Shown piece by piece: positions 12,001-47,120 of a stretch of 64,000 bases of DNA (positions are counted from its first letter, which is position 1; each line of letters starts with the position of its first letter). A program made the position numbers and the translations under genes. The notes under the pieces were generated by a model. It was not told the origin of the DNA. It saw nothing but the letters and a program-made list of their open reading frames with translations, and made no database searches. Location: the IMG/VR virus record IMGVR_UViG_3300046660_000364, positions 2,201-66,200 of that record. The stretch is one strand, 5' to 3'. This DNA comes from a virus. Its lineage: Duplodnaviria; Caudoviricetes.

Positions 12001-15000
12001 ACCGGGTCCTTCGGCGCTTGCGGGTCCTTCGACTGGCGCTTGCCGTCGACGACCTTGCTGGTCGCCTTGGTGCCCACGCCCGAATTGACGTCGAACGCGG
12101 CGACCGGCGCCGGGGCCTGGTCCTTGGCCGGTTCGGCCGGCGGCTGCTCCTGGGCGGGCGCCGCGGGCGCCTGCTCCTGCTGGCCGGACGGCTTGCCCCA
12201 GTCCTTGGCCGAGACCGGCTTGTCGGTCAGCGCGACCGGCGTCAGGCGGTGCTTGCCGTCACCGATCGTGTCGCTCTCGTACAGCTTGCCCTCGTGCTCG
12301 ACGAACTGGCGCAGATCGGTGCCGAAGTTGCCGGCCGGGGCCTGCTCGCCTTCTGGCAGCGCCAGGCTCACCCACACGCTTTGCTTGCCCTGGGTGGAGC
12401 TGGTGACTTTGTAGGTGCGCCCGCCCATCTCGAAATACGGCGACTGCTGGATCTTCTCGGCGCCGGCCTTGAACTGCTCCGGGGTCGGATTCGGGACCTC
12501 GAGCGTGCCATCCTTCTGCTCGGGCGCGGCCGGGGCCTGCGGCTCGGGCTTGGCCGGCGCCTGCTGTTCCTGCGCCAGCTCGGCCTCGGCCTGGTCGAAC
12601 GCCGCGTGCAGCTGGTCCTCGCTGAGGGCGGCGTCGTGCGCCGGCTGCGCGCTGCCATCCTGCGCCAGCGTCTGCTGCGCCTGGCTGTACGGAATGAAGC
12701 GCACGTCCGGGAACCGCGCCTGCAGGGCCGGGATCGCGGCGGCGACCGGATCGGACACCAGTACCGACCTGATGCCGTCGGCCAGCGTCTTGTTCCTATC
12801 GGACAACAGGATGAACGGACCATCCTTGTAGGCGCCACCCGAGGCGGTGCCCAGGCCGGCGCCGACGCCGGCGGCGGCGTCCCTGGCGACCGTCAGCGGG
12901 GCGGTGTCGAACTGGCGGTTCGGGTTGATGCCGTTGGCGAGGATGTTCAGCAGCTGGCCCATCGGGTTGCTCTTGGCCAGGCCGTGGGCGTCGTACTGCG
13001 AACCGACGTCGGGGGTCACGCCGCCGGACTCGTTCCAGGCGTCGAAGTGGTCGTGGTGCTGGCGCGTGACGACGCCGTCGGCGCCGGGCGCGAACTGGGT
13101 GGCGTTCCATGCCTGCACGACGTCCTTGTTTTCCGGCGCGTACAGCGCGCGCAGGCCGTCGTGCATGACGTCGGCCGTGTGCGGGCTGGCCGGCTGGGCT
13201 GGGGCCGGGATCTGCATGGCCGGGAAATACGCCGGGTTGTAGGCGGTGGTCGTGTTGCCGCCCTTGAGCCACTGCTTGAGGCCGTCGACGGTGGTGGCGG
13301 TGATGTTCTCGCCGCCCTGCCAGCCCTGGGTATAGTGCGCGTCATACGCCTTGCGGGCCTGTTCCTGGCTGTTATAGCCCAGCATGACCTTGTGCTCGTC
13401 GAATTCGCCGGTGTCCTGGTTGATCTGGTCGACGATGAAGACGTGGTGGCTGGCCGGGTTCGGACCGATATACGTGTCGACCGCATCGCCGTCGGCGCCC
13501 TTGGTGCCACGGATGTAGCCGTAGTGGTCCTGCATCTGGGTCGACCATGGCGTGCCATCCGGGTCCTTGCCCTCGCGGGTAGTGCCGACCGGGTTCTCGA
13601 TCATCAGGTCGATGCCCTGCAGCTCGCCCTCGCCCTTCTTGTAGTTGCCGGCGTGCTTCTGCGCCTCGGACGGCGGCTTGCGGTCGTTCTGCTCGCTGGT
13701 GGCGGCCTGGTGCGCACCGGCGTCTAGCGCGGCGGCGGCGGCCGGGTCGATGCGGGTGATGTTCTCGATCGGGATGCCTGCGGTCGAGCCTTCGACCATT
13801 GCGTACCTGCCGCTGGGCGAGAACCCGGTGATGCGGGTGCCGCCCTCGAACATGTCCTCGCCGTTCAGCGTCACCTGCACCTGCTCGCCGACCTGCAGGC
13901 CGACCGGCGCGGCCGGGGCCTGCGCGGCGGCGGGATCGACGGCCGGGGTGGCGGCGTCGGCCGGCGGGGCTGCGGCGCCCTGCTCGAGCGCCGGGTCCTG
14001 GACCGGGCGCACACCGAACGCGCCGGCCTGGACCGGGTGCGGCACGACCTCGTGCGGGATGCCGGTGGTGCGGGTGCGGTCGTCGGCCTGCTTCTGCGCG
14101 GCCTCCTGGCGCATCGGCAGCATCGGGGTGGCCAGGCCGGCGGCGGTGGCCATCGGCCCGGCGGGCGGGGCGCCCATGTCGGCGCCGGCGTCGGGAGAGT
14201 CGAGCGGGTCGATGCCCGGCTGGGTGGCGGCCGGCGCGGCCGGGATCGCGGCCGGGTCGGCGAACAGCGAACCATCCAGCGTCAGCGGCCTGTTGGCCGA
14301 GATCGCGCGGGCGGCGTTGACGCGGAAATTCGTGGCGGCCTGCTGGTCGACCTTGGCGATCTCGGGCGCGATCTCGGCGGCAATGCGGGTGCGCTGCTGC
14401 TGGTCGGCGTCGGCCGAGGTCAGGACGTCGTTGCGCTGCTGCTGGCGGTGGGCGTTCACGCCCATGCCGGCCAGGCCGAACGGCGCCAGCAGCGCGGTCA
14501 TGCCGATGGTCGGCAGGATCGCCTCCTTGGCCGCGTCCCACGGCTTCTTGTCGTCGATGCCGTAGCGCGCCTCGGTGTAGGCCTCGGCGGCGTTCTGGCC
14601 CATTTCGGTGCCGACCTCGCCGATCATGGTCTCGGGCAGCTGGTGCAGCCAGGGTTTCAGCACCTTGGTGTTGGTGGCGCCCTGCAGCGCCTGCTCGGCG
14701 GCGGTGCCGGTGGTCTTGCCGATCGCGCGCCCGGCCAGGCCGAACATCTTGCCGCCGAGATAAGTGCCGGCCGTCTCGCCGAACCACTCCTCGGCGCCGG
14801 TCTCGCGTGCGGCGGCCAGGGCGTCCGCCTCGGGAAGCCCCTTGGCGCGCGCCTTTTCCAGCGTTTCCTGGGCCTGCGCCATGCCGGCCGGGGCCGAACC
14901 CAGCACGGAACCGGCCAGCAGGGCGGCGCCCTCGGGCGCACCGACCCCGGAGGCGATCAGGCCAACCCCGACCGCCGGCAGGATCGACTGCGGGATCATG

Positions 15001-35520: not shown

Positions 35521-35825
35521 CACTCGCCCTCCTGGCTTTGCAGTTCGGCCTCGGCCGCCTTGCCGGCCTGGATCGCTTCATCCAGCCAGTCGCGGAAGCT
35601 GGCGGCGCGGCGCACCACCAGCTGCAGTTCGCGCACGTAGTTGGCATCGCTGGCGTCGGCTTCGCCGAGCAGCTCGAGCGCGGCCTGCTTCTCCTGCTCG
35701 GCGCGGCCGATCAGGTACTGGCCGACGGCGCCCTCGACGAAGGCCTTGACGTCCAGGCTGAACTGCACGGTGTGCAGCAGCTCGCGCACTTCCGGCGGGA
35801 ACTGCGAGAAGTCGATTTCGATCAT
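35520..35825 (-). CDS. Hypothetical protein downstream of portal
   Basis: 101-aa helical ORF coupled to the portal stop. Confidence 0.7.
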   Translation of the reverse strand: MIEIDFSQFPPEVRELLHTVQFSLDVKAFVEGAVGQYLIGRAEQEKQAALELLGEADASDANYVRELQLVVRRAASFRDWLDEAIQAGKAAEAELQSQEGE

Positions 35826-38800
35826 GCGTTGAAGTGCTCCACAAGTTTGTCGAAGAAGTCGCGGCCCAGCTGCTCGACAACATCAGAAGGCACGATAAAA
35901 TCGCCGCCCTGCAGGCCGACGGGTTGCATGTCGGCCGGCGCGTCCGGTGCACCTTCGGCCGGGGTGTGGAAGTGCGCCACCAGCTCCTCGAGGTAGTCCT
36001 GGCCGATCACCTGCACCACCGCGGCCGGGATCAGGTACTCGCCGCTGGAGACCTGGGCCGGCTGGGCGCCGTCAATCGTGGCCGGGATCGCGTCGGCGGT
36101 CGGGCCGCCCGGACCCTGGATCAGGCCGCCGTCGGCGTAGGCCGGCGCCTCGGGCTGCTGGCGGTTCTGGTTCTGCATGCGCTCGGCGTACTCGGGGATC
36201 GAGTTGACCGAGGCGTCGAGCTTGCCGCGGTTGTCGCCGACGAACTTCATGGCGCGCTGGGCGGCGCTGTGGATCGGCGCCTTGGCCAGCTTGTAGGCGG
36301 GGATCAGGCCGATGGCGTCACCGGCGGCGGCGCCGTACTCGCCCTTGTACAGGTCGTTGGCCACATCCAGCGCCGAGGTCACGGTGCCGGTGCCGGGCAT
36401 CAGGTCGAGCGCCAGCTTGGCCTTCGGGTACTCGTTGGCCAGCTGGTCGTAGCCGCGCGACAGGCGGCCGGGCAGCGCAGCGGCCTGCTGGAGGCCGTTG
36501 TTCACCATGCTGGTGGCGCCGTTCCAGGTCTGCTGCAGCGGGTTGACCGGGTTGGCCGGGTCGACCAGGCCGCCGTTGGCGTAGCTGTCATCCGGGTACG
36601 GCAGGCGCGGGTAGCCGGCCAGCCCCATGTTGGTCTCGTCGGTCAGGCCGTTCAGGGTGCGCGAGACCGGGTCCGGCGCTTTCAGGCCCATCTCGGCGCC
36701 GTACAGGCGGCGGTTGTCCTGCATGATGCGCAGGTGGTCGGCCAGGTCGATGCGCTGGTCCATGTCGAGCGGGCCGTAGGCGCCCATGCTCGGGATCAGG
36801 CCGCCGTTGCGGTAGGCGGCCTGGCCGATCAGGCTGGCGCCGGCGCTGTCCGGGCGGGTGGTCTGGATGCCGGCGCGCTCGCCAGTTCCCGCGGTAGCGG
36901 GAATCGGCGGCAGCGGATTCAGGGTGGTCGATGCGCCCTGTCCCGGCATGAAGGCGACCCCGGTGCGGCGGTTTTTCACGGCCTCGATCCCCAGGCCGGC
37001 GCTTGGCGCGCCCGGCATCGGGAAATTCGGGTCGATCCCGGAGGGGGTGGGCGGGCGGTAGCCGGCGGCCTTCATCAGCTCGTCGGCGATCGGGGCCACG
37101 CCCGGCACGGCGGCGATGACCTCGGCGGTCTGCATGGCCGAGAACTGCGCCTCGGACCCCTTCTTGACCGCATCGGCCGCGGTGACGCGGTCCTTGACGG
37201 CGTAGCTGGCCACCTCGGCGTCGATCTTGCGGATCTGCGCGGCGATCAGGGCCGGGTCGGCCTTCTGCGCCAGCTGCTGCTGCAGCTGCTGGACCTGGTC
37301 CTGCAGGCGCTTGACCATCGGGTCGCTGCCGTCGAAGTTGAAGAAGCGGGCGCCGTCCTTGTAACCGAGCTTGCCGAACAGCTCCTTGACGATCTCCTCG
37401 ACGTTCAGGCCCAGGTTCACGAGGCCATCGTTGGCCAGCATGTTGCCGAGTGCCGTCATGCCGTCGACGAACTGGCGCACCTGGTCGGCCGGGTTGACGG
37501 CGCCCATGCCGACGTTCACGTTGAGCGTGAACTCGTTCATCAGCTGCTCGTCGGTGATCTGGTCCATCCCGAAGCGCTGCAGGTCGGCGGTCTTGCCGCA
37601 CAGCGCGATCAGGGCGTCGTCGGTCTCGTAATACTGCTCCAGCAGCACCAGCTGGCGCAGCACCGGCTCGACCCAGGTCTCGACGAAAGTGCGCAGCTGG
37701 TAGCCGCTCACCTGGTTGGCGCCGGCGTCCAGCATCTGCATGCCGCCGACCGTCTCGTTCAGCTTGCGGTTCGATTGCACCGAGGACCCGGAGAAGGTGC
37801 CGGCGACATCATCGAAGTCCAGGTTCAGGACCTCCTGCTCTTTATAGGAGGAGCCGGTGACGTCGTTGAATTCCACCACTTTCACATCGTCGATGTCCTG
37901 CACCAGGGTGACGGAGCCGGGCACGTTCCTCGTCACGCTGCGCAGGTCGACCTGCTTGTTGCGGCGCGCGAAGTATCGCTTGTTCATGGCCAGCTTGACG
38001 TTGTCGATGCGCTGGTTGGCGACCTCGTTGATCTCGGCCTGGACGTCGCGCGTCAGGCGCGGCACCGAAGACGGATACAGCTTGTGGGTCTCCAGCACGG
38101 CGGTGCCGACCACATACGGGCGGCGGCCGTGGAAGTAGACCTCGGTGAGCGGCACCGGGTCCGACAGCAGGTGCTCGCAGCCGAGGGTGTAGTAGCAGTA
38201 GTCGACCTCGTCGACCTCGACGATGTTCTTGTGGACCCAGACGATATTGAAGTTGCCGTTGGCCTGGGTCTGGTATTTGCTGTCGGTGCGCGGCGACTCG
38301 CGCTGCAGGCGGATGGTGTCGCCGTAGGTCTTGGTGGCGCCCTGGATCGTGGACTCGGGCAGGGTTTTCCACTTGGCCTCGCCGGTCTTGGCGTCGACGT
38401 TGCGCATGCGCGCCTTGACGTCCTTCACGTACATCGGGATCAGTTCGATCACGTAGGGGCTGGTGCCGACCGGGTCGGTCCAGTCCGCGCCCGGGTCGAA
38501 GCGCAGGTTCTCGATCGGCACCAGGCGGATCTGCGGGCGGTCGATGTTCTTCTTCTCGTTGTACTGCCAGTATTGGTACGACGCCACCACGCCCACGGTC
38601 TGGGCGTCCTGGTAGGCGCCGACCAGGGTCAGGAACCAGGGGATCGACTTGGTGAGCCGGTGCTGCAGCAGCGCGCCCATGACGGCGGCCGACCCCAGCT
38701 GCGTGGGGTCGTCCTCGTCCTGCGCCGTCACCTTGAGGACGTCGTTGCTGGCAAAGAAGGCCTGGGCCGCGGCGGCCTCGTTCTTGCGGATCGTGGTGCG

Positions 38801-39019
38801 GGTCTTGGGCCGGAACAGTTTACTTCTGCCCTTGTTGGCCTCGGCCAGGTACTTCGAGCCGGCCGGGTGCTGGCCCTGGAACTGGCGCAAATCTCCCTCG
38901 ATCTGGGCGCGCACCGAGCTGTCGAACCAGTTCGAGGAGGCGCTGAAGGCGTCCCGCGCGAGGGCCACCCAGTCGGGCGTGTCTTGCGCCGGCGCGGCGG
39001 TGTTGTTCTGGTCGTCCAT
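35822..39019 (-). CDS. Portal protein (P22-like) with ~400-aa C-terminal extension
   Basis: SKLFRPKTR, RFDP.A, QAEINE..NQRIDNV, ETVGGM, ETWVEPV portal motifs; lies between terminase and scaffold. Confidence 0.85.
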   Translation of the reverse strand: MDDQNNTAAPAQDTPDWVALARDAFSASSNWFDSSVRAQIEGDLRQFQGQHPAGSKYLAEANKGRSKLFRPKTRTTIRKNEAAAAQAFFASNDVLKVTAQDEDDPTQLGSAAVMGALLQHRLTKSIPWFLTLVGAYQDAQTVGVVASYQYWQYNEKKNIDRPQIRLVPIENLRFDPGADWTDPVGTSPYVIELIPMYVKDVKARMRNVDAKTGEAKWKTLPESTIQGATKTYGDTIRLQRESPRTDSKYQTQANGNFNIVWVHKNIVEVDEVDYCYYTLGCEHLLSDPVPLTEVYFHGRRPYVVGTAVLETHKLYPSSVPRLTRDVQAEINEVANQRIDNVKLAMNKRYFARRNKQVDLRSVTRNVPGSVTLVQDIDDVKVVEFNDVTGSSYKEQEVLNLDFDDVAGTFSGSSVQSNRKLNETVGGMQMLDAGANQVSGYQLRTFVETWVEPVLRQLVLLEQYYETDDALIALCGKTADLQRFGMDQITDEQLMNEFTLNVNVGMGAVNPADQVRQFVDGMTALGNMLANDGLVNLGLNVEEIVKELFGKLGYKDGARFFNFDGSDPMVKRLQDQVQQLQQQLAQKADPALIAAQIRKIDAEVASYAVKDRVTAADAVKKGSEAQFSAMQTAEVIAAVPGVAPIADELMKAAGYRPPTPSGIDPNFPMPGAPSAGLGIEAVKNRRTGVAFMPGQGASTTLNPLPPIPATAGTGERAGIQTTRPDSAGASLIGQAAYRNGGLIPSMGAYGPLDMDQRIDLADHLRIMQDNRRLYGAEMGLKAPDPVSRTLNGLTDETNMGLAGYPRLPYPDDSYANGGLVDPANPVNPLQQTWNGATSMVNNGLQQAAALPGRLSRGYDQLANEYPKAKLALDLMPGTGTVTSALDVANDLYKGEYGAAAGDAIGLIPAYKLAKAPIHSAAQRAMKFVGDNRGKLDASVNSIPEYAERMQNQNRQQPEAPAYADGGLIQGPGGPTADAIPATIDGAQPAQVSSGEYLIPAAVVQVIGQDYLEELVAHFHTPAEGAPDAPADMQPVGLQGGDFIVPSDVVEQLGRDFFDKLVEHFNA

Positions 39020-39639: not shown

Positions 39640-42054
39640 TCAGACGCTGCGCGGCAGGATGGCGAACTGGGGCGCCAGGCCGTAGTTCGGTTTCGTTGGG
39701 CGCGCCATGAACTTGGCCCAGGCGGTGGCGCCGCCCGGATAGCCGCTGTCGACCGCAAACGCCAGGCCCGGCTGGTAGTTGGCCGGGTAGCCGTCGGTGG
39801 AGGCGGGATAGCCGTCGATGTCGCCCGGCAGGCAGTTGGGGGAAAAGGCCAGGCGCTGCGGCGAGTTGCAGGGGTATTGCTGCTGGGCCGGGGCGACCGT
39901 GAACGCGAAGCACTCGGCCAGGGTGCCGAAGAACGGCGCGGTACTGGTGGTGCGCACGCCGAGCGCGTAGGTGCAGGCGTTCAGGTTGCAGACCGCCGGG
40001 TCGTTCATGCGGCCGACCTGGAACTTGGCCTTCCACGCAAGCAGGCGGCGCGCATCCGAATTCCCCAGCAGATCGACGCCGTGGCCGATGGCCTGGGTGA
40101 AGAAGTCGTCCATCCACGGCGCGATGCCGTTGCCGGTGCCGCCGTTGACCGGGTAGGCGATCGCGTAGCCGTTGGTGATGACGCCCAGCGCGTTGTCGTT
40201 GCCGTCGACGTAGCGGGCGACGAACCAGCTGATGTTGTTGGTGTACCAGGTCTGGAAATGCGACTTGAGCGGGTGGCCCTCGGGGGTGATGGCGGCGCAC
40301 TCGGCCAGCGTGCGCATGCTCCAGCCCTGGCCGCGCACCTGGTCGGCGCGCACATGCGCCTTCTCGAAGTCGCGGTAGTAGGGGTTGTCCTGGTAATGAT
40401 TGAAGGTGCACCAGAAGTGCAGGCCTTCCAGGTAGAAGAAATCGCCGGTGAGCAGGTACGGCAGGTAGTACAGGTCCGGCTGGTGCGAGCTGTCCGGGCC
40501 GCCCTGGGTCACGGTGGTCAGGTTCGGCAGCTTCTCGTTCTTGCCGGTGGCCGGGTTGATGCAGTCGCCGGGGTTGCCCAGCAGCGAGGAGTACGGGAAG
40601 TTGATGACCGACAGCGGGTAGCCGCGGCCCGGACCGGCGCTGTCGTCGCGCCGGCACATCGGCCAGCTGCCGCCGATGTCGGCGCTGGCCAGCATGATCG
40701 CCTTGGCCCGCTTGTCCATCGACAGCACGGTAGTGGCATGGATGTCCGGCATGATGCCGATGTCGGGGCGCCCGCCGGTGGTGCCCATGGCCGGCTGCAG
40801 GTTGCCGAAGCCCATCGGGTCGAAGCGGGTGCTGGCCATGGTCGTGACGTAGCCGTTCAGCACCGATTCCGGGATGACCACGCTCTGGTCGTAGTTCGGG
40901 ATCTGGCGGCTGCCGATCAGGTAGGCGGTGTCGTGGCGGATATGCAGGGTCGGCGCGCCGCCGGTCCAGAAGGTGCGCTTCCAGCGCGCGGTCGGGGTGT
41001 GGATCAGGCCGGTCTTGCTGTAGACCGTGGCGCCGGCGGCGTTCAGGGTGACGTCGTAGACGATGTCGGTGGTCGAGGTGTAGGCCTGGCAGTGCTCGAT
41101 CACGGCGTCGATGCGGGCCTGGCCGGTGCTGAACGCGCGCACCGAGAACTGCGCTGTCAATGTCGGGTGCCGGCCGCTCGGCCCGACGAAGGGCACGTTG
41201 AAGATGAAGTCGGAGGCCACCGGGCCGGCGAACCAGGTGTCGGGGACGACGCCGGCGCAGCTGGCGGTGTAGGTCACGCCGCTGATGACCACGCTGGCCG
41301 AGGGCAGCGATGCCGGCAGGCCGACGGCGGTCGCGCTGCCGGCGGCACTGGCGCGCTTGATCGACAGGGTCTGCGAGGCACTGGCGGCCAGGGTCGGCAG
41401 CACGCCGCAGATCATGGCGTGGCGCACCGAGCCGTCCGGGTGCAGGGCCTTGACGTTCAGCTGGGCGGCGATGCTGCTGCTGTCCGGCAGGGTCAATGTG
41501 ATCCCGGCGCCGGTCGACGGCAGGTGGCCGAGCGCGAACACGTGGCCGAGCGCGAACGGCGCATTGGCGACCGGAGTGGCCGCGGTGTTCTCGATCTTGA
41601 AGGTGGTGATCTGCGCGCCGATGGCGATCGGGGTGCCGGTGGCGGGCGGGTCGCCGGCGGCGCCGGTGGCGGCGAAGCCGATGCTGCGCTGGCCCTGGCG
41701 GCTGGCGACGGTGGCGAGCGTGGCCGGCAGGGCGCCGTTGACCGGCACGATCGCGCGGCTGACCTGGGCCTGGCTGGCGCTGGCCGTGGCGTCGGTATGG
41801 ATGCTCTGGTTCGAGAGCGCGGCTGCGGCGGCGAGGCGCTGGGCCTGGCGGGTGCCGGCGGTGACGTCCAGCAGCATCGGGATGTCGATGCGCGGGGCGT
41901 ACAGGGTCGTGTTGACGTCGCTGGTGAGCGTGCGGCCGCCGAAGCTGTAGCTCAATACCGGCGGGGCATTGAAATTCGCGCTCGGGTCAGCCATCCCGAC
42001 CTCTTCCGACCACAGGCGGTCGGAGAAGCGCGGGATGGTGCGGTCATCACTCAT
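39640..42054 (-). CDS. Putative carbohydrate-active (PcRGLX/YetA-like lyase fold) virion accessory protein
   Basis: PFALGHVFALG..Q...KALHPDGSVRHA N-terminal barrel motif; GGRPDIG, HQPDLYYLPYLLTGD.FYLE, QVRGQGW helical domain. Confidence 0.6.
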   Translation of the reverse strand: MSDDRTIPRFSDRLWSEEVGMADPSANFNAPPVLSYSFGGRTLTSDVNTTLYAPRIDIPMLLDVTAGTRQAQRLAAAAALSNQSIHTDATASASQAQVSRAIVPVNGALPATLATVASRQGQRSIGFAATGAAGDPPATGTPIAIGAQITTFKIENTAATPVANAPFALGHVFALGHLPSTGAGITLTLPDSSSIAAQLNVKALHPDGSVRHAMICGVLPTLAASASQTLSIKRASAAGSATAVGLPASLPSASVVISGVTYTASCAGVVPDTWFAGPVASDFIFNVPFVGPSGRHPTLTAQFSVRAFSTGQARIDAVIEHCQAYTSTTDIVYDVTLNAAGATVYSKTGLIHTPTARWKRTFWTGGAPTLHIRHDTAYLIGSRQIPNYDQSVVIPESVLNGYVTTMASTRFDPMGFGNLQPAMGTTGGRPDIGIMPDIHATTVLSMDKRAKAIMLASADIGGSWPMCRRDDSAGPGRGYPLSVINFPYSSLLGNPGDCINPATGKNEKLPNLTTVTQGGPDSSHQPDLYYLPYLLTGDFFYLEGLHFWCTFNHYQDNPYYRDFEKAHVRADQVRGQGWSMRTLAECAAITPEGHPLKSHFQTWYTNNISWFVARYVDGNDNALGVITNGYAIAYPVNGGTGNGIAPWMDDFFTQAIGHGVDLLGNSDARRLLAWKAKFQVGRMNDPAVCNLNACTYALGVRTTSTAPFFGTLAECFAFTVAPAQQQYPCNSPQRLAFSPNCLPGDIDGYPASTDGYPANYQPGLAFAVDSGYPGGATAWAKFMARPTKPNYGLAPQFAILPRSV

Positions 42055-42175
42055 CGGATTCCTCGGGAATGGGCAGCGGTTGCGGGTGCAGCGAAGTCGG
42101 CGGCATCTTGTCGAGCCAGGCCACGAAGTCGGGGGACGGCAGGAACGGCGCGGGCGGGAACGCGCCGCTCGCCAT
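42047..42175 (-). CDS. Possible 42-aa peptide
   Basis: TGATG coupling; MASGAFPPAPFLPSPDFVAWLDKM..EESDE with internal GAGGA RBS for the next gene. Confidence 0.4.
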   Translation of the reverse strand: MASGAFPPAPFLPSPDFVAWLDKMPPTSLHPQPLPIPEESDE

Positions 42176-42468
42176 CACACACCCCGGCCCTTGTGCTTGG
42201 CGTGGCTTGGCACCTGGTTCTCGACGTTGTGGGTGTCGGTACGCACCACGCCGCGGCCGGTCGGCACACTCGGCACGTGGCGGCTGGTCGGCGCCACCGG
42301 CGGGCGCGCCATCGGCGACGGCATCGGCGGGGGCGTCGTGGCCATGGCGGCACGCGGGGCCGGCACGGCAGGCGGCCGGGCAGCCTGCGGCGGGACTGGC
42401 GGTGCTGGCGGCGCCTTCATCGACGGCACCTGTTCCGGCTTCGCGACAGGCTGGACAAACTTCTTCAT
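42175..42468 (-). CDS. Pro-rich small protein
   Basis: GAGG RBS; MKKFVQPVAKPEQ. Confidence 0.55.
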   Translation of the reverse strand: MKKFVQPVAKPEQVPSMKAPPAPPVPPQAARPPAVPAPRAAMATTPPPMPSPMARPPVAPTSRHVPSVPTGRGVVRTDTHNVENQVPSHAKHKGRGV

Positions 42469-42521
42469 GGGGAACCTCGTGGGTCTTGACAGGTGGTAAC
42501 ACCAGACGACAAACTGGCGTG

Positions 42522-42893
42522 ATGGATAACCAAAAAGAAACAGAACAGCACAGCCCGCAGGCGGACACGGAGCTTGTGACCATGCAGGCCATGGCCGAGT
42601 GCATGGACATGGTCCGGCAGGAGCTGGTCGAGGCCGGAATCATCGACGAGAGGGTGCCGCCGATGTTCGTGGCCGAGGCAGTACGGAGCCGTGTGGGCAC
42701 GTTGCTGAGCGATATGCGCTCGGCGCTGGTCGAGCTGACCGCGGTGCAGCGCAAGCTGATCGACGCCAACGCCGAGATCGCGGCGCTGCTGCTGGCCCGA
42801 GACGCGGCGCGGAATTTCTGCGGCCGTTGCGGCAAGCGGCTCACCACTGACCTGGTTCACACCTGCACGCCACCAGCGGAGGCACCGGCATGA
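42522..42893 (+). CDS. Hypothetical protein with C-terminal CxRCGK..VHTCTP zinc finger
   Basis: C-terminal part of track ORF 42069..42893; ATGA-coupled to the next gene. Confidence 0.65.
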   Translation: MDNQKETEQHSPQADTELVTMQAMAECMDMVRQELVEAGIIDERVPPMFVAEAVRSRVGTLLSDMRSALVELTAVQRKLIDANAEIAALLLARDAARNFCGRCGKRLTTDLVHTCTPPAEAPA

Positions 42894-43558
42894 CCCAAGA
42901 CGCAGAAATCCTCGCCCTGCATCGCCAGCTCGCCTACCAGAAGCTGCGCGCCGACCTGGCCGAGGCCCGCGCCACGTCGAAGTCGCAGGAGTGCATCGAG
43001 CTGCGCGAGCGGATGGCCAATTCCCCCGAATTCGAGGGAACTAGCCCATTGCAGGAGGCGGTCAACCGGCTTGACGACATCCTGCAGGGCGACGACGGCC
43101 AGGCGTACAAGGAAGCCCGCAAGGCGCTGCCGAGGCTGCGCGCGGCACTGGAGCGTGAATCCGTGACCGTCACGGGAAATGGTCCGTGGCACGCCGAGGA
43201 AATCGCGCAACGGCTGCCCCCGCCCCGCGCCACGGTCGCTGCGGTGACGGCCGAACTACTGGCCGCCGGCAACGCGGTGGTCGAGCACTGGCACTCGCGC
43301 GACTGGAAAAAGCCGCCTACTGCGGATGTTATCGCTCGGCTGACGAGGGCGGTAGGCCGGGTCAAACGAGGCCGTGAGCTGTACACCTGCGTCGGCAAGG
43401 GCGGCGAATACGAACTGGTTGGCGAGGCAAAGGGCGCCGGGACGTTGAAGACTTATTCGGGCTTGATCGTCTACCAGGACAGCATGACCGGGCAGATGTA
43501 CTGCCGTTCGATGACGGACTTCGACAATCGCATGCTGCGGATCGGACACCAGCCATGA
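42890..43558 (+). CDS. Hypothetical mosaic phage protein
   Basis: 222 aa; C-terminal KGGEYELVG..IVYQD...G.MYCR...DF (DUF1653-like). Confidence 0.65.
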   Translation: MTQDAEILALHRQLAYQKLRADLAEARATSKSQECIELRERMANSPEFEGTSPLQEAVNRLDDILQGDDGQAYKEARKALPRLRAALERESVTVTGNGPWHAEEIAQRLPPPRATVAAVTAELLAAGNAVVEHWHSRDWKKPPTADVIARLTRAVGRVKRGRELYTCVGKGGEYELVGEAKGAGTLKTYSGLIVYQDSMTGQMYCRSMTDFDNRMLRIGHQP

Positions 43559-44019
43559 AGGTACTGATATTCGACATCGACGGCGTCATCAACAGCGAGC
43601 GGACCTGCGCCGCCTTCGACGGCTACCCGCACGATTTCAGCCCGGTCGACATGGCCCGCTTCGATCCGGTGGCGCTGGCCCTGGTGAGGAAGCTGTGCGC
43701 GAAGACCGATTGCGTGATCGTGCTGTCCTCGACCTGGCGCCTGACCTTCACGATCGAGGAAGTGGCGCACTACTTGGACCTGCCGGTGATGGCGGCCACG
43801 CCGGACCTGGGCGACACCAACTCGCGCAGCGACGAGATCGCGCTGTGGCTCAGGCGGCATCCGCAGATCACGACCTACGCCATTGTCGACGACCTGGCGT
43901 TGGACTTCGACGACCCCGAGCAGCAAGCCCGCTTCGTCAAGACCAACGAGGAGTTCGGCCTGTCGCTGCCCAACTACCGCGCCCTGCTGCGCATCCTGAA
44001 CCCTGGAGTAGCACCATGA
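43555..44019 (+). CDS. HAD-family protein (HAD_SAK_2, RNA-repair-associated type)
   Basis: IFDIDGVIN, IVLSSTWR, R.DEI..WL, YAIVDD motifs. Confidence 0.8.
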   Translation: MKVLIFDIDGVINSERTCAAFDGYPHDFSPVDMARFDPVALALVRKLCAKTDCVIVLSSTWRLTFTIEEVAHYLDLPVMAATPDLGDTNSRSDEIALWLRRHPQITTYAIVDDLALDFDDPEQQARFVKTNEEFGLSLPNYRALLRILNPGVAP

Positions 44020-44228
44020 CCAGTCGCAACCAACGAGAGGGCCGCTACGCCGGCCAGGTCCTCACCTTCCACATGCGCAGCAGGATTGCCCGCCGCGTCT
44101 CGACGTGGAACGCCGAGCAGGCGCTGATCGACCACAGCGACCGGCAAGTGCAGCGCCTGCGCAATCGCAGGGTCCGCATCGAGGCGGCCACGCTTGCCGT
44201 GCTGCCGAACGACCGCAGCCAGGGATGA
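44016..44228 (+). CDS. SRNQREGRY-leader small protein 1 (70 aa)
   Basis: GGAG RBS, ATGA coupling; MTSRNQREGRYAGQVLTF. Confidence 0.7.
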   Translation: MTSRNQREGRYAGQVLTFHMRSRIARRVSTWNAEQALIDHSDRQVQRLRNRRVRIEAATLAVLPNDRSQG

Positions 44229-44362
44229 CTAACCCGACCGCCCGCGCGATTGCCAGCGTGGCCTGCTGCGCAGCCTGCTGCGCCATCGCCTTCGCCGAAC
44301 CTGTCTATGGTGTGCTGTGCATCATCGGCATGATCGGCGGCCTTTACACTATCTGGAGCTAG
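44225..44362 (+). CDS. Small membrane protein (45 aa)
   Basis: MTNPTARAIASVACCAACCAIAFAEPVYGVLCIIGMIGGLYTIWS. Confidence 0.55.
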   Translation: MTNPTARAIASVACCAACCAIAFAEPVYGVLCIIGMIGGLYTIWS

Positions 44363-44365
44363 ACC

Positions 44366-44581
44366 ATGACCGACACCAACGACAAGATCGAATTCGACCA
44401 GGACGAGGTCGCCAAGCTGGAACCGTGGAGAGCGGCCGACCACCTGTCCACCGACGAGGACATCGCCGGCTATCTGGTGGCCGTCCTGGACGAGCCGGAC
44501 GCCGACCCGGAAAAAGAGGTGGAGGTGCTGTGCAGCGCGATCCGCGACGTCATCACCGCACTCAGGAAGCGCGCCGCGTGA
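44366..44581 (+). CDS. HI1420-family antitoxin-like N-terminal fragment, no HTH
   Basis: PWRAADHLSTDEDIAGYLVAVLDE..AIRDVITA resembles the addiction-module antidote N-terminus. Confidence 0.55.
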   Translation: MTDTNDKIEFDQDEVAKLEPWRAADHLSTDEDIAGYLVAVLDEPDADPEKEVEVLCSAIRDVITALRKRAA

Positions 44582-44814
44582 AGCCGGACGAACGCCAGCT
44601 CCATGAGGGCGATGTCGTCCAGCTCTCGCCCGACGTCGGCAATCCCATGTTCGCCTGCTGCATGATGACCGTGACCGAGCCGAAGTCGTTCGGGGCGCAG
44701 GGCTATGTCCAGATGACCGGCGAGGACGGCAAGCCCGGTGGCGCGGCGTTCTACCGTGCCAAGTGGGAGGAAATGGAGTACGTCGGCCAGGCCGCATGGG
44801 TGATCAACCGATGA
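44578..44814 (+). CDS. Hypothetical phage protein
   Basis: GDVVQL..VTEPKSFGAQGYV..EYVG.A.W. Confidence 0.65.
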   Translation: MKPDERQLHEGDVVQLSPDVGNPMFACCMMTVTEPKSFGAQGYVQMTGEDGKPGGAAFYRAKWEEMEYVGQAAWVINR

Positions 44815-44999
44815 TGTACTACAGCGCCCTGCCACGCCGCTTCTGCACCCCCGAGCAGCCGATGCAGCACGAGTTCAGGGACCACTACCAGTGGAGCCAT
44901 CCCGATGCTGCCGAGGTCATGCCGTTCTTCAACCTGGTGGTCTACACCTGCCCGCACTGCAAGCACACGTTCCACGCCGAACCGAGGAAGCCCGAATGA
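44811..44999 (+). CDS. Small Zn-ribbon protein
   Basis: CT...M..W.HPDA..YTCPHCKH. Confidence 0.6.
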   Translation: MMYYSALPRRFCTPEQPMQHEFRDHYQWSHPDAAEVMPFFNLVVYTCPHCKHTFHAEPRKPE

Positions 45000-45226
45000 G
45001 TACCTGGAACTACCGCGTGGCACGCACCACGCAGACCGTGAACGGCGAGGAGTATGTGTCCTTCGCCATCCACGAAGCGCACTACGACAAGCCGGAATCG
45101 GCTCCGCGCGTGATCTCGCGGGACGCGATGACCACCAGCTTCGAGAGTGTCGAGGAGCTGCGCGCCGGACTGACCCGGATGCTGGCCAGCCTGGACAAGC
45201 CGGTGCTGAACTACGAGGACTTCTGA
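44996..45226 (+). CDS. Hypothetical phage protein
   Basis: WNYRV..AIHEAHYD..ESVEEL..M...LDKPVL. Confidence 0.7.
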   Translation: MSTWNYRVARTTQTVNGEEYVSFAIHEAHYDKPESAPRVISRDAMTTSFESVEELRAGLTRMLASLDKPVLNYEDF

Positions 45227-45227
45227 C

Positions 45228-45443
45228 ATGGCCCATCACCACGTCTCGGCAAGCTGCGAGGGCGAACGCTGCACGGCCTGCGGCGCACCGGCCAGCCACA
45301 AGGTGGGCGAGGAAATCCAGTGGGACGATCCGCAGCCGAACCGCCACAACCTGACGGCCTACTTGTGCTGCTTCCACTTCGCCAAGGTGTTCGGGCCTGC
45401 CGCGCCGTGCGCAGTGCTGGCCGACCACCAGGGGGCGCAGTGA
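45228..45443 (+). CDS. Small Cys/His-rich protein
   Basis: C..CG.PA.HKVGEEI..RHNLTAYLCC.HF. Confidence 0.65.
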   Translation: MAHHHVSASCEGERCTACGAPASHKVGEEIQWDDPQPNRHNLTAYLCCFHFAKVFGPAAPCAVLADHQGAQ

Positions 45444-45634
45444 AGCTCAAGCCCGACACCATCCTGCCGACGCCCGAGGAAGATGCCGCGATCACGGCTG
45501 CTGCCCTGGCCGACCCTGATAATCCACCGCTGACCGACGCCGAGCTGGCGCAGTTCCGTCCATCCCGCTGCCAGCGTTGCGGCAAGATGCTGGCCCTGAC
45601 TGGCCCGCACGTTCACACCTGCACCCCAGCATGA
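45440..45634 (+). CDS. BrnA-type antitoxin N-terminal fragment fused to a CxRCGK..VHTCTP finger
   Basis: PTPEEDAAITAAALADPDNPPLTDAELAQFRP then CQRCGK..HVHTCTP. Confidence 0.6.
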   Translation: MKLKPDTILPTPEEDAAITAAALADPDNPPLTDAELAQFRPSRCQRCGKMLALTGPHVHTCTPA

Positions 45635-45891
45635 GCCGCAATCAACGAGAGGGCCGGTACGTCGGGACCTTCCGGGGCAAGCAAGTGCGGCGCCGTGCGC
45701 TGCTGCCTGCCCTGATGGTTGGCGATGCGGAGCTGTTCCCGCCGTCCGTGCCCTTCCCCGACAACGGGATCGCCTGGCTGACCATGAACCAGCGCAGCCC
45801 GGTGGAGCCAGTCCTGCCGCTGCGCATCCGCTACCGCAGCAAGGACAGGACCGCCGAGGTGGTGCTGGAGAGGGCCGGGCATGACGACTAG
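45631..45891 (+). CDS. SRNQREGRY-leader small protein 2 (86 aa)
   Basis: ATGA coupling; MSRNQREGRYVGTF. Confidence 0.7.
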   Translation: MSRNQREGRYVGTFRGKQVRRRALLPALMVGDAELFPPSVPFPDNGIAWLTMNQRSPVEPVLPLRIRYRSKDRTAEVVLERAGHDD

Positions 45892-46036
45892 CCGGAACCA
45901 GAGGGAAGGTCGCTACGCCGGCAAGCTGTACGGGCAGCACTGGCGCAGCCGGTTCTATCATGGCCCTGGTCACTACAACGCGGTGATGACGCCGTACGTC
46001 GAGGCGGTCATGCGCAGCAAGCGGAAGTGGCGATGA
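45881..46036 (+). CDS. SRNQREGRY-leader small protein 3 (51 aa)
   Basis: Manual translation MTTSRNQREGRYAGKLYGQHWRSRFYHGPGHYNAVMTPYVEAVMRSKRKWR. Confidence 0.65.
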   Translation: MTTSRNQREGRYAGKLYGQHWRSRFYHGPGHYNAVMTPYVEAVMRSKRKWR

Positions 46037-46206
46037 CCAGCCGGAACCAGCGCGAGGGCTACTACGTCGGCCACAGTGAGGGCCGTGCGGTGCGCTGGCG
46101 TCTCGCCCTGGTCAGGCGGGTGCGCAGTGCCAAGGCCAGGGCGATCCTGCGCCGCCGCAGCTACGCTGCCTACGGCCTGGTGATCCGGGCCGAGAGCATC
46201 GGGTAG
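46033..46206 (+). CDS. SRNQREGYY-leader small protein 4 (57 aa)
   Basis: Manual translation MTSRNQREGYYVGHSEGRAVRWRLALVRRVRSAKARAILRRRSYAAYGLVIRAESIG; ATGA coupling. Confidence 0.65.
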   Translation: MTSRNQREGYYVGHSEGRAVRWRLALVRRVRSAKARAILRRRSYAAYGLVIRAESIG

Positions 46207-46335
46207 CTCGGCTGGTGGAGGCGGCATCTACCGAACCCGAACCCTGGTCCCCCTATGACAGCAGGGTCTCGGGACGGTTCGCACTGGCACCGATACCCAC
46301 AACGATACCCCCGCTGCGCCGGCCGGACGTAGAAA

Positions 46336-46366
46336 CGCCCTCGGCACTGGGTAAGTACCGAGGGCG
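46336..46366. terminator. Hairpin between convergent transcription units
   Basis: cgccctcggcact-gggta-agtaccgagggcg stem; only a short U tract on the minus strand. Confidence 0.45.
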
Positions 46367-46408
46367 CTTGCCGCTCCCCCCGAAGCAGTGGAGCCAGTAT
46401 AGCGCCTG

Positions 46409-46981
46409 TCAGGCGTGGCCGTCGAGGTATCGGTAGAGGGTCATGCGGCTGATCCCGTACTCCCTGGCCAGCGCGGCCTTGGAGATCGCCGGATCGGCAG
46501 CGCGCTGGCGCAGCTCCTGCACGGTCGCTCCGTCGAGGGTGGGCTTCCTGCCCTTGTACTTGCCCTTGCGCTTGGCGATGGCGATCCCTTCGGCCTGCCG
46601 CTCGCGGATCATGGCCCTCTCGAACTGTGCGACAGCACCCAGCAGCCCGAGCAGCAGCTCGTTCATCGGGTTGGCCTCACCCGAGAAGGTCAGGTTCTGC
46701 GCGGTGAACGTCACGGTGACACCATCCTCGGTCAGGCGGTGCACCATCAGCAGCAGATCGTGCAGGTTCCTGGCCAGGCGGTCCATGCTGTGCACGAACA
46801 GCGTGTCGCCGTCCCGCACGTAGTCCAGCATCGCCTTCAACTGCGGCCTGTTCGTCGTGCCGCCGCTGCACTTGTCCTCGAACACCTTGTCCAGCTCGAC
46901 GCCGTCCAGCTGGCGCTCCGTGTTCTGGTCCGTGGTCGACACCCGCACGTACCCGATCCGCTTCCCTGGTCCCTTGCTCAT
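46409..46981 (-). CDS. Serine recombinase (resolvase/invertase family)
   Basis: IGYVRVST.DQ, SMDRLAR, AQFER.MIRERQ.EG, GRKP, C-terminal HTH; GAGGAGG RBS. Confidence 0.95.
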   Translation of the reverse strand: MSKGPGKRIGYVRVSTTDQNTERQLDGVELDKVFEDKCSGGTTNRPQLKAMLDYVRDGDTLFVHSMDRLARNLHDLLLMVHRLTEDGVTVTFTAQNLTFSGEANPMNELLLGLLGAVAQFERAMIRERQAEGIAIAKRKGKYKGRKPTLDGATVQELRQRAADPAISKAALAREYGISRMTLYRYLDGHA

Positions 46982-46999
46982 GGCTACCCTCCTCGGTGG

Positions 47000-47120
47000 T
47001 TGTGTACCACTAGAGTGTAGACCACAAGCGCATAGTGTCAAGCTAGGCGGAACACCATCCTATTGTTACTGGTCGAGTCCTGGCCTGCGCCCCGTAACAC
47101 ATGAATGTACCCATGTGTTA
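47000..47120. promoter_or_regulatory. Candidate res-like binding region upstream of the recombinase
   Basis: AT-richer segment with inverted repeat taacacatg-N8-catgtgtta (47095-47120) and weaker imperfect repeats. Confidence 0.5.

Follow-up and report, generated by a model that had tools for sequence, protein, structure and literature searches.

The N proteins of phages lambda and P22 and the Nun protein of HK022 are small, basic early phage proteins in which nucleic acid is bound by a short Arg-rich segment at the N-terminus, the remainder varying by phage and contacting other partners. These lambdoid Arg-rich motifs vary between phages with their RNA targets and bind as helices. The T4-type leader is a short, conserved N-terminal peptide found on small, basic, otherwise unrelated proteins that are often encoded in tandem; it occurs in related phages only, whose own head machinery recognizes and cleaves it. 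In Arc/CopG ribbon-helix-helix (RHH) proteins and in AbrB/SpoVT, N-terminal β-structure with basic contacts is combined with a variable C-terminal part that makes the dimer or multimer. More generally, no other part of phage genomes is as poorly understood as the small proteins, many of which turn out to be host-takeover or anti-defence factors.

The stretch of phage DNA analyzed here, 64 kb in length and referred to as the window, encodes four small proteins that all open with M(T)(T)SRNQREG[RY]Y[AV]G and then diverge. Like the lambdoid proteins, their shared module is Arg-rich, mostly N-terminal and located in nin-like early regions; unlike the lambdoid motifs, it is near-invariant across unrelated phages and is predicted to form a helical turn followed by a β-hairpin. 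As in T4-type internal proteins, a conserved head is carried by small, basic, unrelated bodies, here encoded in tandem. In contrast with the T4-type leader, however, the module spans phages without a detectable shared capsid protein or terminase, belongs to a predicted fold and is sometimes internal. Its predicted N-terminal β-element and the modelled dimer made by the ORF2 tail are reminiscent of Arc/CopG and AbrB/SpoVT, from which it differs in that each chain has its own hairpin, the modelled dimer is tail-made, and sequence, profile and fold searches yielded no match to those families.

The shared module and its family

The four ORFs are real genes. They were found, as originally described, all on the + strand, within a cluster of tightly packed small genes:

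42069..46206, + strand: cluster of about 14 tightly packed small genes, including all four module genes
44016-44228, + strand: ORF1, module protein of 70 aa, start MTSRNQREGRYAG
44022..44084, + strand: module copy 1, 21 codons, S-R-N-Q-R-E-G-R-Y-A-G ... H-x-R
45631-45891, + strand: ORF2, module protein of 86 aa, largest body class, start MSRNQREGRYVG
45634..45696, + strand: module copy 2, in ORF2, from sequence and model (predicted helix 3-7, strands 9-14 and 17-21)
45881-46036, + strand: ORF3, module protein of 51 aa, start MTTSRNQREGRYAG
45890..45952, + strand: module copy 3, in ORF3, from sequence
46033-46206, + strand: ORF4, module protein of 57 aa, start MTSRNQREGYYVG
46039..46101, + strand: module copy 4, in ORF4, from sequence and model (predicted helix 4-8, strands 10-15 and 18-22)

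The ATG of ORF1 overlaps the stop codon of a HAD phosphatase gene (ATGA), and ORF2 overlaps the stop of the gene upstream in the same manner; ORF2 and ORF3 overlap by 11 nt, and ORF3 and ORF4 by ATGA. Codon-position GC, scored over ORF2-4, is consistent with coding on the + strand. ORF4 is the final gene of the cluster, which runs toward invertase and terminase genes on the - strand. A six-frame search of the 64 kb for RNQREG returned four occurrences, exclusively at the four ORF starts, and a degenerate DNA pattern run on the whole 66.2-kb record gave four forward, zero reverse and zero control matches. All four genes have relatives. ORF1 is 60% identical over its full length to a 70-aa protein (P0015), and ORF2 has relatives at 75-80% identity in L010, L015, L018, L019, L022 and L026. 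Residues 3-51 of ORF3 are identical in L026 and 63-68% identical in L033, L009, L019 and L010, and ORF4 is 93% identical in L026.

The shared peptide of the original prediction is thus real, but it is not limited to 11-13 residues, as it continues to about residue 21 as x3-G-x-[H/Q/A]-x-R. What the proteins have in common is a module, structural and presumably functional, that comprises about 21 residues and is wider than a short leader peptide. Its consensus is S-R-N-[Q/K]-R-E-G-x-Y-[A/V]-G and, after a loop that varies from 3 to about 20 residues, [K/R]-[H]-x-R. Ten of the 11 core residues are common to the four window copies, and His17 is replaced by Q in ORF2 and by A in ORF4. Among 204 proteins, the conserved residues were counted as S1 203, R2 204, N3 197, R5 201, E6 204, G7 204, Y9 192 (F in the other 12), G11 204 and R19 170, figures that are inflated by the use of motif-built words, patterns and profiles to find the members, the regular expression itself fixing several positions. 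With R2, R5 and R19 and a median net charge of +5, the module is, like the motif of lambda N-type antiterminators, an Arg-rich N-terminal peptide; no Pfam or PHROG profile matched it.

Judged from the codons, selection acts on the peptide and not on the DNA, as had been proposed. In 102 unique copies, serine is encoded by both AGY (79) and TCN (23) and arginine by both CGN and AGR; pairwise identity is 0.42 at third positions, which are nearly random, vs 0.83 for residues. The possibility that a DNA-level site in another frame explains the conservation was not borne out, the remaining five frames being interrupted by stops in 34-75 of the 102 copies. The suggested comparison of leader and body gave nine synonymous and one non-synonymous difference over the 11 core codons relative to L016, and a dN/dS of 0.25-0.60 for the ORF2 body.

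The motif recurs well beyond the window. The first viral pattern, which required neither Ser nor a start codon, found 29 loci in IMG/VR contigs vs none with the reversed control pattern; Ser nevertheless precedes the motif in 29/29 loci and an ATG lies 1-11 codons before that Ser in 28/29, so that the motif is not a chance occurrence and stands at ORF N-termini elsewhere too, as anticipated. A Lys variant added 28 further viral loci, and a metagenome scan found 42. A profile search of 1.84 billion representatives gave 134 protein clusters, all of small proteins (36-222 aa), a size range that makes the mimicry of a host protein, one of the roles first envisaged, look unlikely. The median length is 66 aa; many members have 42-66 aa, and the shortest has 36. 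Copy number varies from 1 to 4; the family has undergone expansion in the phage clade of the window, where 2-4 copies stand in tandem and are translationally coupled. Naming the family would annotate well over 100 metagenomic ORF clusters, many of whose members are short.

Module-bearing phages span 38-68% GC. The near-invariance of the head over this range speaks against sequence-specific operator binding. The window's major capsid protein and large terminase found no match in any of five other module-bearing records, four of them rated 100% complete. No gene family was common to more than three of six such records; the target of the module is therefore probably not a phage-specific partner. 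Across phages with no other gene common to all, the 21-residue head hardly varies, and everything behind it changes. This singles out a very small surface that is very strongly constrained.

Searches for known relatives bear out the initial statement that this is not a known family. At E up to 10, no Pfam family matched the four ORFs; in PHROGs v4 nothing went beyond E 0.15 and 0.29, both to families of unknown function, and the best NCBIfam r20 match had an E of 0.16. None of these three collections revealed any likeness to toxin families. When 44 members of the ORF2 class were scanned singly, no family was matched by more than two, the best match to Pfam HicB (2/44 members) having an E of 0.011. 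Sequence comparison with the PDB gave E 1.1 and 0.3 at best, Foldseek 4.9 against the PDB and 2.0 against BFVD, and VIA-align no chain at Z >=2 for either model. Nucleic-acid-binding families or folds were not matched in sequence, profile or fold searches, nor known sponge or inhibitor folds in the fold searches. One module protein used as query was not found in 50,697 GenBank phage records, and a full-text literature search for the motif returned no paper. The family of small basic phage proteins with this head is apparently undescribed.

Predicted fold, tails and domain fusions

Structure prediction (AF2) used shallow alignments of our own, of 44 and 25 rows, as did the dimer runs. The model of the ORF2 class (mean pLDDT 85, and 94-96 over residues 1-50) comprises a helix (3-7), four strands (9-14, 17-21, 28-30 and 33-36) and a second helix (45-55). 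That of the ORF4 class (mean pLDDT 72) has the same helix and hairpin, followed by a helix. The module is thus predicted to form one helical turn and a β-hairpin that are built into the fold and do not make up a detachable tag. The order of secondary structures in ORF2 is compatible with a β-β-β-α domain of the AP2 / integrase-arm type, a DNA-binding domain that we took to be a candidate for the module. This three-stranded-sheet domain was set aside, as it gave no Pfam match at E up to 5-10 and no fold match, the latter counting for little since small models score poorly.

A homodimer model of ORF2 reached an ipSAE of 0.58, vs 0.02 for the best control. The ORF2 mark was attained by 20 of 30 proteins solved as pairs of one chain and, among proteins solved as single chains, by 1 of 23. 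The runs share at least 88% of their contacts, and partner pLDDT is at least 81. The confident interface consists of residues 26-36, 50, 53-54, 64, 66 and 69-83; it uses the tail, and module residues 2-22 are absent from it and remain free. Two free heads on a symmetric dimer would correspond to the usual layout of small DNA-binding proteins.

The tails fall into about 96 classes without detectable likeness. In agreement with the unrelated bodies first reported, 36 hhalign comparisons of body classes beyond residue 21 gave a probability of 8% at best. The tail of ORF2 carries a second motif, PD..(I/V)AW...R...P...R.RY..K, and several tails harbor CxxC...CxxC motifs. The Arg-rich character noted for most of the window's proteins corresponds to a computed pI of 10.7-11.9 for ORF1, ORF2 and ORF3. 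Among the 159 proteins with an N-terminal module, the median pI is 10.8 and 147 exceed 9; the median net charge of the tail is +4. A basic charge would also suit acidic proteins or nucleotides as ligands, a consideration against binding to nucleic acid.

The module starts within 10 residues of the N-terminus in 159/204 proteins and more than 30 residues from it in 36/204, where it follows HicB-like, Arc-like or Cys-rich domains. Thus, the module domain of P0146 comes after a HicB-like antitoxin N-domain (phrog_9151, E 3e-17, profile positions 6-76 of 119), and P0156 likewise opens with a HicB-like N-domain. In this respect both resemble HicB antitoxins; in contrast, the window's four proteins have no HicB part, and the module domain of P0146 occupies the place where canonical HicB has its DNA-binding domain, an arrangement that would fit the replacement of one by the other and hence a nucleic-acid-binding role. 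In P0139, an Arc-like RHH domain (phrog_582, E 4e-4) precedes the module. A second DNA-binding domain behind such an RHH domain would be odd if the module also bound nucleic acid.

Possible ligands of the module

Tentatively, we favor a role of the module as a conserved head that binds nucleic acid, carried on variable tails that would dimerise or determine specificity. The side chains of the near-invariant Ser, Arg, Asn, Arg, Glu, Tyr and Arg residues would together make up a single conserved binding surface with positive charge, which might bind DNA or structured RNA. The target would either be read through its shape or its backbone or be one that many hosts share. The tails, which evolve fast, would complete the small fold and supply dimerisation, as modelled for ORF2, and probably also provide partners or targets specific to a lineage. 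Conservation at the protein level, the extent of the family, its lack of known relatives, the predicted shape of the module and the basic charge are results of the analysis; what the module binds, how head and tail share the work and when the genes are expressed are what we infer.

It is possible, if unlikely, that the module is a minimal, portable effector head of about 21 residues with one target that is constant across very different bacteria. Candidates would be structured nucleic acids, conserved host factors and immune nucleotides. Phages would attach the head to dozens of unrelated tails, or insert it after antitoxin-like domains, in order to position or regulate it. If so, these proteins would represent a new modular class of small phage effectors, with the four tandem copies as a diversified battery, and a portable head could double as a compact binding tag.

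We similarly regard as unlikely, albeit credible, that the module is a conserved 'warhead' for a host protein (for instance one acting in replication, transcription or translation) or a small nucleotide ligand (for instance in immune signalling) widespread in bacteria, the family then being host-takeover or anti-defence factors and the tandem copies the product of arms-race diversification. The near-invariance of the head in unrelated phages with no shared phage partner suits a target common to hosts. The accessory small-gene setting and the variable copy number are also in keeping with this reading; the conserved Arg, Tyr, His, Ser and Glu might fit a phosphate or nucleotide pocket. Among 60 upstream neighbours scanned with Pfam, in which neighbouring ORFs were called by a crude rule, one was Tad2-like and one Acb2/Tad1-like. 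Two in 60 is thin, however, and the remaining named neighbours are ordinary early-region genes, including RusA in 4/60 downstream positions, DUF551, Ead/Ea22 and HTH. Module genes generally lie in early or accessory small-gene clusters, in nin-like early regions outside the virion module, and no neighbour was found to recur across lineages. The very high pI of head and tail also suits polyanions better than a discrete pocket, and known sponge and inhibitor folds are unmatched.

Toxin, tag, leader and DNA-site explanations

Improbable, in our view, is that the module proteins inhibit growth or act as small basic toxins, each paired with an antitoxin-like partner whose gene lies just upstream and is sometimes fused to theirs. 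Small genes, 4-bp overlaps and small genes upstream are compatible with it, as are the fusions to HicB-like and Arc-like domains, which Pfam matched weakly, and a weak 'antidote' match of the 71-aa gene at 44366-44581 (E 0.0034, under Pfam's cutoff). Against it, the 60 upstream neighbours are heterogeneous, with HTH_31 in just two and no recurring antitoxin family, no toxin family is matched, and the window's 76-aa upstream ORF has no BLAST likeness to the fused HicB-like domains. In addition, known type II toxins are larger than many module proteins (42-66 aa).

The original prediction favored a short tag on variable payloads, such as a packaging or targeting signal or a ribosome-acting leader. 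Its description as a shared motif on variable bodies, with putative binding, is a fair one; the short, detachable tag was not supported. That an N-terminal targeting or processing signal delivers unrelated cargoes to one machine and is perhaps then removed, on the model of the T4 capsid-targeting leader or of a degradation or secretion signal, is very improbable. The prevalent N-terminal position of the module and the resemblance of the small, basic, unrelated bodies to internal proteins are in its favor, and the window's phage also encodes a giant polyvalent protein, of a kind presumably delivered with the DNA. However, in ORF2 the module is integrated into a fold predicted with confidence, and its shape recurs in the ORF4 class; 36 proteins have it in an internal position, the bodies are under purifying selection, and the genes lie outside the virion module. 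A signal for the phage's own head machinery should moreover be lineage-bound, so that the lack of capsid and terminase relatives in all five other lineages, and of any gene common to all, counts against it; the T4-type leader was disfavored on this ground. A twin-arginine or other secretion signal was likewise discarded, as the residues following the motif in the listed sequences are polar or basic, with no hydrophobic stretch after the arginines.

It is still harder to believe that the peptide works in cis, either on the ribosome, as a leader or nascent-chain element, or as a RiPP-type leader recognized by a modifying enzyme, the rest of the ORF being minor. A conserved head with free-running tails would be expected, and a universal target such as the ribosome tunnel might account for invariance across hosts, but the bodies are conserved among orthologues, under purifying selection and predicted to fold. 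RiPP precursors were rejected, since Pfam revealed no leader-recognising or modifying enzyme among the 60 upstream and 60 downstream neighbours and no other gene co-occurs across lineages; the tails are generally not Cys/Ser/Thr-rich cores.

Finally, the codon and reading-frame data above contradict the idea that the conservation stems from an overlapping gene in a different frame or from the DNA itself, for example from recombination sites for the DNA invertase whose gene lies 200 nt downstream of ORF4. Although they rank first among the direct-repeat families of the region, the four copies are only 70-74% identical over 47 nt and all in direct orientation, no clean inverted pair of serine invertase sites surrounds the gene, relatives L015, L018 and L022 of the window's clade have no invertase match within the available stretches, and five other lineages carry one copy each.

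Features of the module locus

The peptide RNQREG occurs four times in a six-frame search of the window, in each case at the start of one of four small ORFs (ORF1-ORF4) and nowhere else. A degenerate DNA pattern run across the whole source record (66,200 bases, IMG/VR, rated 66% complete; window 64,000 bases, GC 67.8%) gave four forward matches, no reverse match and none for the control, which confirms the shared N-terminal peptide reported in the original prediction. ORF1-ORF4 belong to a series of about 14 densely packed plus-strand genes (42069-46206) whose overlaps are ATGA or GTGA, and the codon-position GC of ORF2-ORF4 follows the pattern of plus-strand coding. A promoter and terminator scan of 41900-46500 yielded no signal exceeding those of shuffled sequences.

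Features of the locus in the window
43555-44019, plus strand: 'Swiss Army Knife RNA repair'-type HAD phosphatase (PF18143, E 2.5e-27)
44016-44228, plus strand: ORF1, 70 aa, product opening MTSRNQREGRYAG
44225-44362, plus strand: 45-aa hydrophobic, Cys-rich peptide immediately 3' of ORF1, no family match
44811-44999, plus strand: small Cys/His-rich ORF, no family match
45228-45443, plus strand: small Cys/His-rich ORF, no family match
45440-45634, plus strand: small Cys/His-rich ORF, no family match
45631-45891, plus strand: ORF2, 86 aa, product opening MSRNQREGRYVG
45881-46036, plus strand: ORF3, 51 aa, product opening MTTSRNQREGRYAG
46033-46206, plus strand: ORF4, 57 aa, product opening MTSRNQREGYYVG
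46409-47041, minus strand: serine DNA invertase (phrog_125, E 4e-61), flanked by the module array and the terminase

The stop codon of the HAD phosphatase gene overlaps the ATG of ORF1, and this upstream gene recurs in L015, L022 and L024, three of the loci found by module-pattern scans. The Cys-rich peptide that follows ORF1 has counterparts in L022 (91% identity) and L015 (73% identity), and in a relative (P0006) an ORF2-like module protein carries the N-terminal part of the 45440-45634 product as an in-frame fusion. On the 3' side of ORF4, the opposite strand carries the serine DNA invertase and two terminase genes, one large and one small. The invertase was matched in L010, L019, L024, L026 and L031, and no match was found over the available stretches of L015, L018 and L022. 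Read-through translations of these last three loci show a near-identical stretch after the last module gene, where the window has the invertase.

A conserved head on divergent tails

Conservation of the head, a segment of about 21 residues whose first 11 form the core (S-R-N-Q-R-E-G-x-Y-[A/V]-G), operates on the peptide rather than on the DNA, as originally proposed. At the DNA level the four copies share 70-74% identity across 47 nt, and differences between the 11 core codons and those of orthologues are numerous at synonymous sites but nearly absent at non-synonymous ones; in the comparison with L016, there are nine synonymous differences for eight synonymous sites and one non-synonymous difference for 25 sites. 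The dN/dS of the ORF2 body is 0.25-0.60, indicating that the bodies are constrained as well, though less than the core. Among 102 unique module copies pooled from all scans, serine is encoded by AGY in 79 and TCN in 23, and arginine by both CGN and AGR. Pairwise identity averages 0.83 between the peptides, 0.69 when all bases are compared and 0.42 when only third positions are. Since the loci were gathered with peptide-derived patterns, the residue invariance is partly built in, which does not hold for codon usage or for stop codons in other frames. Depending on which of the five alternative frames is read, between 34 and 75 of the 102 copies contain a stop within 63 nt, and a gene in another frame was therefore set aside, as were recombination sites of the invertase, around which no clean inverted-repeat pair marking an invertible segment was found. 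That a DNA-level site explains the conservation is thus exceedingly improbable. These data establish a real, translated-looking gene family whose head is under very strong protein-level constraint.

The motif is also found at ORF N-termini elsewhere. The pattern RNQREG-x-Y-[AV]-G, which demands neither the serine nor a start codon, matched 29 IMG/VR contig stretches (GC 38-66%), and the reversed control pattern matched none. Serine immediately precedes the match in all 29 loci, and an ATG lies 1-11 codons ahead of the serine, with no intervening stop, in 28. The L019 module is an in-frame fusion to 41 residues encoded ahead of it; the unfused complete ORFs of this first scan encode 44-86 aa. 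A variant pattern with Lys for Gln added 28 viral loci (ATG within 12 codons in 22), and a metagenome scan gave 42 loci. Six loci were obtained from 185,579 prokaryote genomes, one per species: three are convincing, each a small ORF with the module at its N terminus (Undibacterium, Massilia and a Pseudomonadota MAG), one match is without a start codon and two do not fit the module pattern. A word-seeded protein search collected 112 proteins, and a profile of the first 32 residues retrieved, from 1.84 billion representatives, 134 clusters (E up to 0.001), all of 36-222 aa. Sequencing runs containing the locus are DNA runs from rhizosphere and soil metagenomes, with no RNA run among those listed.

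Conservation across the 204 collected proteins extends beyond the core. Column by column, the core has S (203), R (204), N (197), Q (138) or K (32), R (201), E (204), G (204), any residue, Y (192) or F (12), A (97) or V (65) and G (204), and is followed by three variable residues, G (152), R or K, H (125), any residue and R (170). In many members the loop between the two halves is longer, with 3 to about 20 residues separating YxG from [K/R]-H-x-R, so that the conserved unit appears to be two strands and a variable loop rather than an 11-mer. The 159 proteins in which the module starts within 10 residues of the N terminus are short and very basic (medians 66 aa and pI 10.8; pI above 9 in 147); in 36 of the 204, more than 30 residues precede it. 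BLAST clustering divides the post-core bodies into 96 groups, and the nine largest body classes, compared after removal of the first 21 residues, gave probabilities of at most 8% in all 36 profile-profile pairs, a comparison whose power is limited by the short sequences. The bodies, described as unrelated in the original prediction, thus differ beyond recognition.

The family has no known relative, in line with the earlier reading. Pfam, PHROGs and NCBIfam did not recognize the ORF1-ORF4 proteins. DNA comparison with isolated phages gave eight short matches, none of which spans more than 7% of the query or falls inside ORF1-ORF4, and tblastn of ORF3, the one protein of the four used, with the low-complexity filter on, gave a single irrelevant match (E 3) in 50,697 GenBank phage records; neither search found an isolate bearing the family. 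The ESM Atlas returned nothing usable, and the best PDB sequence matches, DprE1 (E 1.1) and a 12-residue stretch of Cas1 (E 0.3), were taken as chance. Fold searches with models of module proteins matched no solved or predicted viral structure, which is weak evidence, as such small models may not reach thresholds. A protein-cluster look-up of four members gave neither names nor accessions, and a full-text literature search found no paper with RNQREG as a substring. The family therefore appears to be undescribed, and to be built into modular small phage proteins.

Predicted structure and possible function

AlphaFold2 models were built from shallow alignments (44 rows for ORF2, 25 for ORF4), and all structural statements are predictions. 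The ORF2 model (mean pLDDT 85; 94-96 for residues 1-50) has a helix at 3-7, strands at 9-14, 17-21, 28-30 and 33-36, and a helix at 45-55; that of ORF4 (mean pLDDT 72) has a helix at 4-8 and strands at 10-15 and 18-22, followed by a helix. As the helical turn and hairpin are alike in both, the head probably belongs to the fold. A two-copy model of ORF2 reached an ipSAE of 0.58 (best control 0.02), passing the mark of the tool. In calibration, 20 of 30 proteins with solved structures as pairs of one chain attained that mark, as did 1 of 23 with single-chain structures, counts that apply only roughly here because of the custom alignment. The dimer runs agreed in at least 88% of contacts, with a partner pLDDT of at least 81. 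The confident predicted interface lies in the tail (residues 26-36, 50, 53-54, 64, 66 and 69-83) and includes no module residue, which does not prove that the head makes no contact.

From sequence and models, the module proteins look most like nucleic-acid binders, a reading that we favor tentatively. A small, symmetric, very basic protein would show two copies of an Arg/Asn/Tyr-rich hairpin. The head is near-constant among phages of very different hosts, and it would therefore be expected to read shape or backbone, or to bind some universally conserved molecule, rather than a phage-specific operator. Closest in working are the N-terminal Arg-rich motifs of the lambdoid N and Nun proteins, and small regulators with a conserved N-terminal β element and a variable multimerizing tail, although membership tests assigned the module proteins to neither group. 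The N-terminal extension of P0146 is a HicB-like antitoxin N-domain (phrog_9151, E 3e-17), and Arc-like ribbon-helix-helix domains also occur (in P0139, E 4e-4); a Cys-rich domain is a further extension ahead of the module. In two fusion proteins the head stands where HicB has its DNA-binding end, for which it may substitute, and CxxC pairs occur in several tails; both features would suit a nucleic-acid binder. Some of these 'fusions' may reflect gene-caller starts placed too far upstream. P0146 as a query found only five proteins, one a stand-alone HicB-like protein, and a 76-aa ORF of the window has no likeness to the fused HicB-like domains.

The main rival to nucleic-acid binding, that the head binds a conserved host protein or a signaling nucleotide, is unlikely but deserves weight, in view of the varying copy number and of anti-defence genes next to 2 of 60 module genes. 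That the proteins are toxins paired with antitoxin-like partners is improbable. Ranking just behind is the short docking, targeting or mimicry tag on variable payloads originally proposed; if detachable, such a tag is contradicted by the module lying inside the predicted fold, by its internal copies and by the lack of shared head genes across lineages. A cis-acting or RiPP-type leader is very improbable. In the membership tests the proteins fitted none of RiPP precursors, secretion signals, T4-type capsid-targeting leaders and AP2-like domains, and RiPP leaders and secretion signals were set aside.

Lineages and gene neighborhoods

Eight IMG/VR loci are close relatives of the window phage (terminase identity 85-92%), with two to four module genes in the same position. 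Five other lineages, examined over nearly the full length of their records (four rated 100% complete), showed one module gene each; these lineages have no relative of the capsid protein or terminase of the window phage, and no gene family is common to more than three of the six module-bearing records.

Immediate neighbors were called by a crude rule, and the scan covered all 60 upstream candidate ORFs and 60 of 75 downstream candidates, the other 15 being from the clade of the window phage. Upstream, HTH_31 was matched twice, and Tad2-like, Acb2/Tad1-like, HAD_SAK_2, DUF551, RyR, gp49/66 and DUF6475 once each; downstream, RusA was matched four times, along with DUF551, Ead/Ea22 and a helicase. 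The Tad2-like gene (E 4e-23) and the Acb2/Tad1-hairpin gene (E 4e-15) each lie directly 5' of the module gene at one of the 60 loci (among L005-L127). We take the neighborhood to be an accessory, nin-like early region of temperate phages rather than a virion module.

Elsewhere in the window, a reading frame longer than 5,130 aa (3-15392, minus strand), which continues past the window edge, encodes a 'large polyvalent protein' with InPase, DUF6884, LPD1 and a strawberry-notch-type helicase (AAA_34 and Helicase_C_4). The portal protein (35822-39019, minus strand; 1,065 aa) is spanned by PHROG portal and adaptor profiles only over residues 37-625 or so, which points to a long C-terminal extension.
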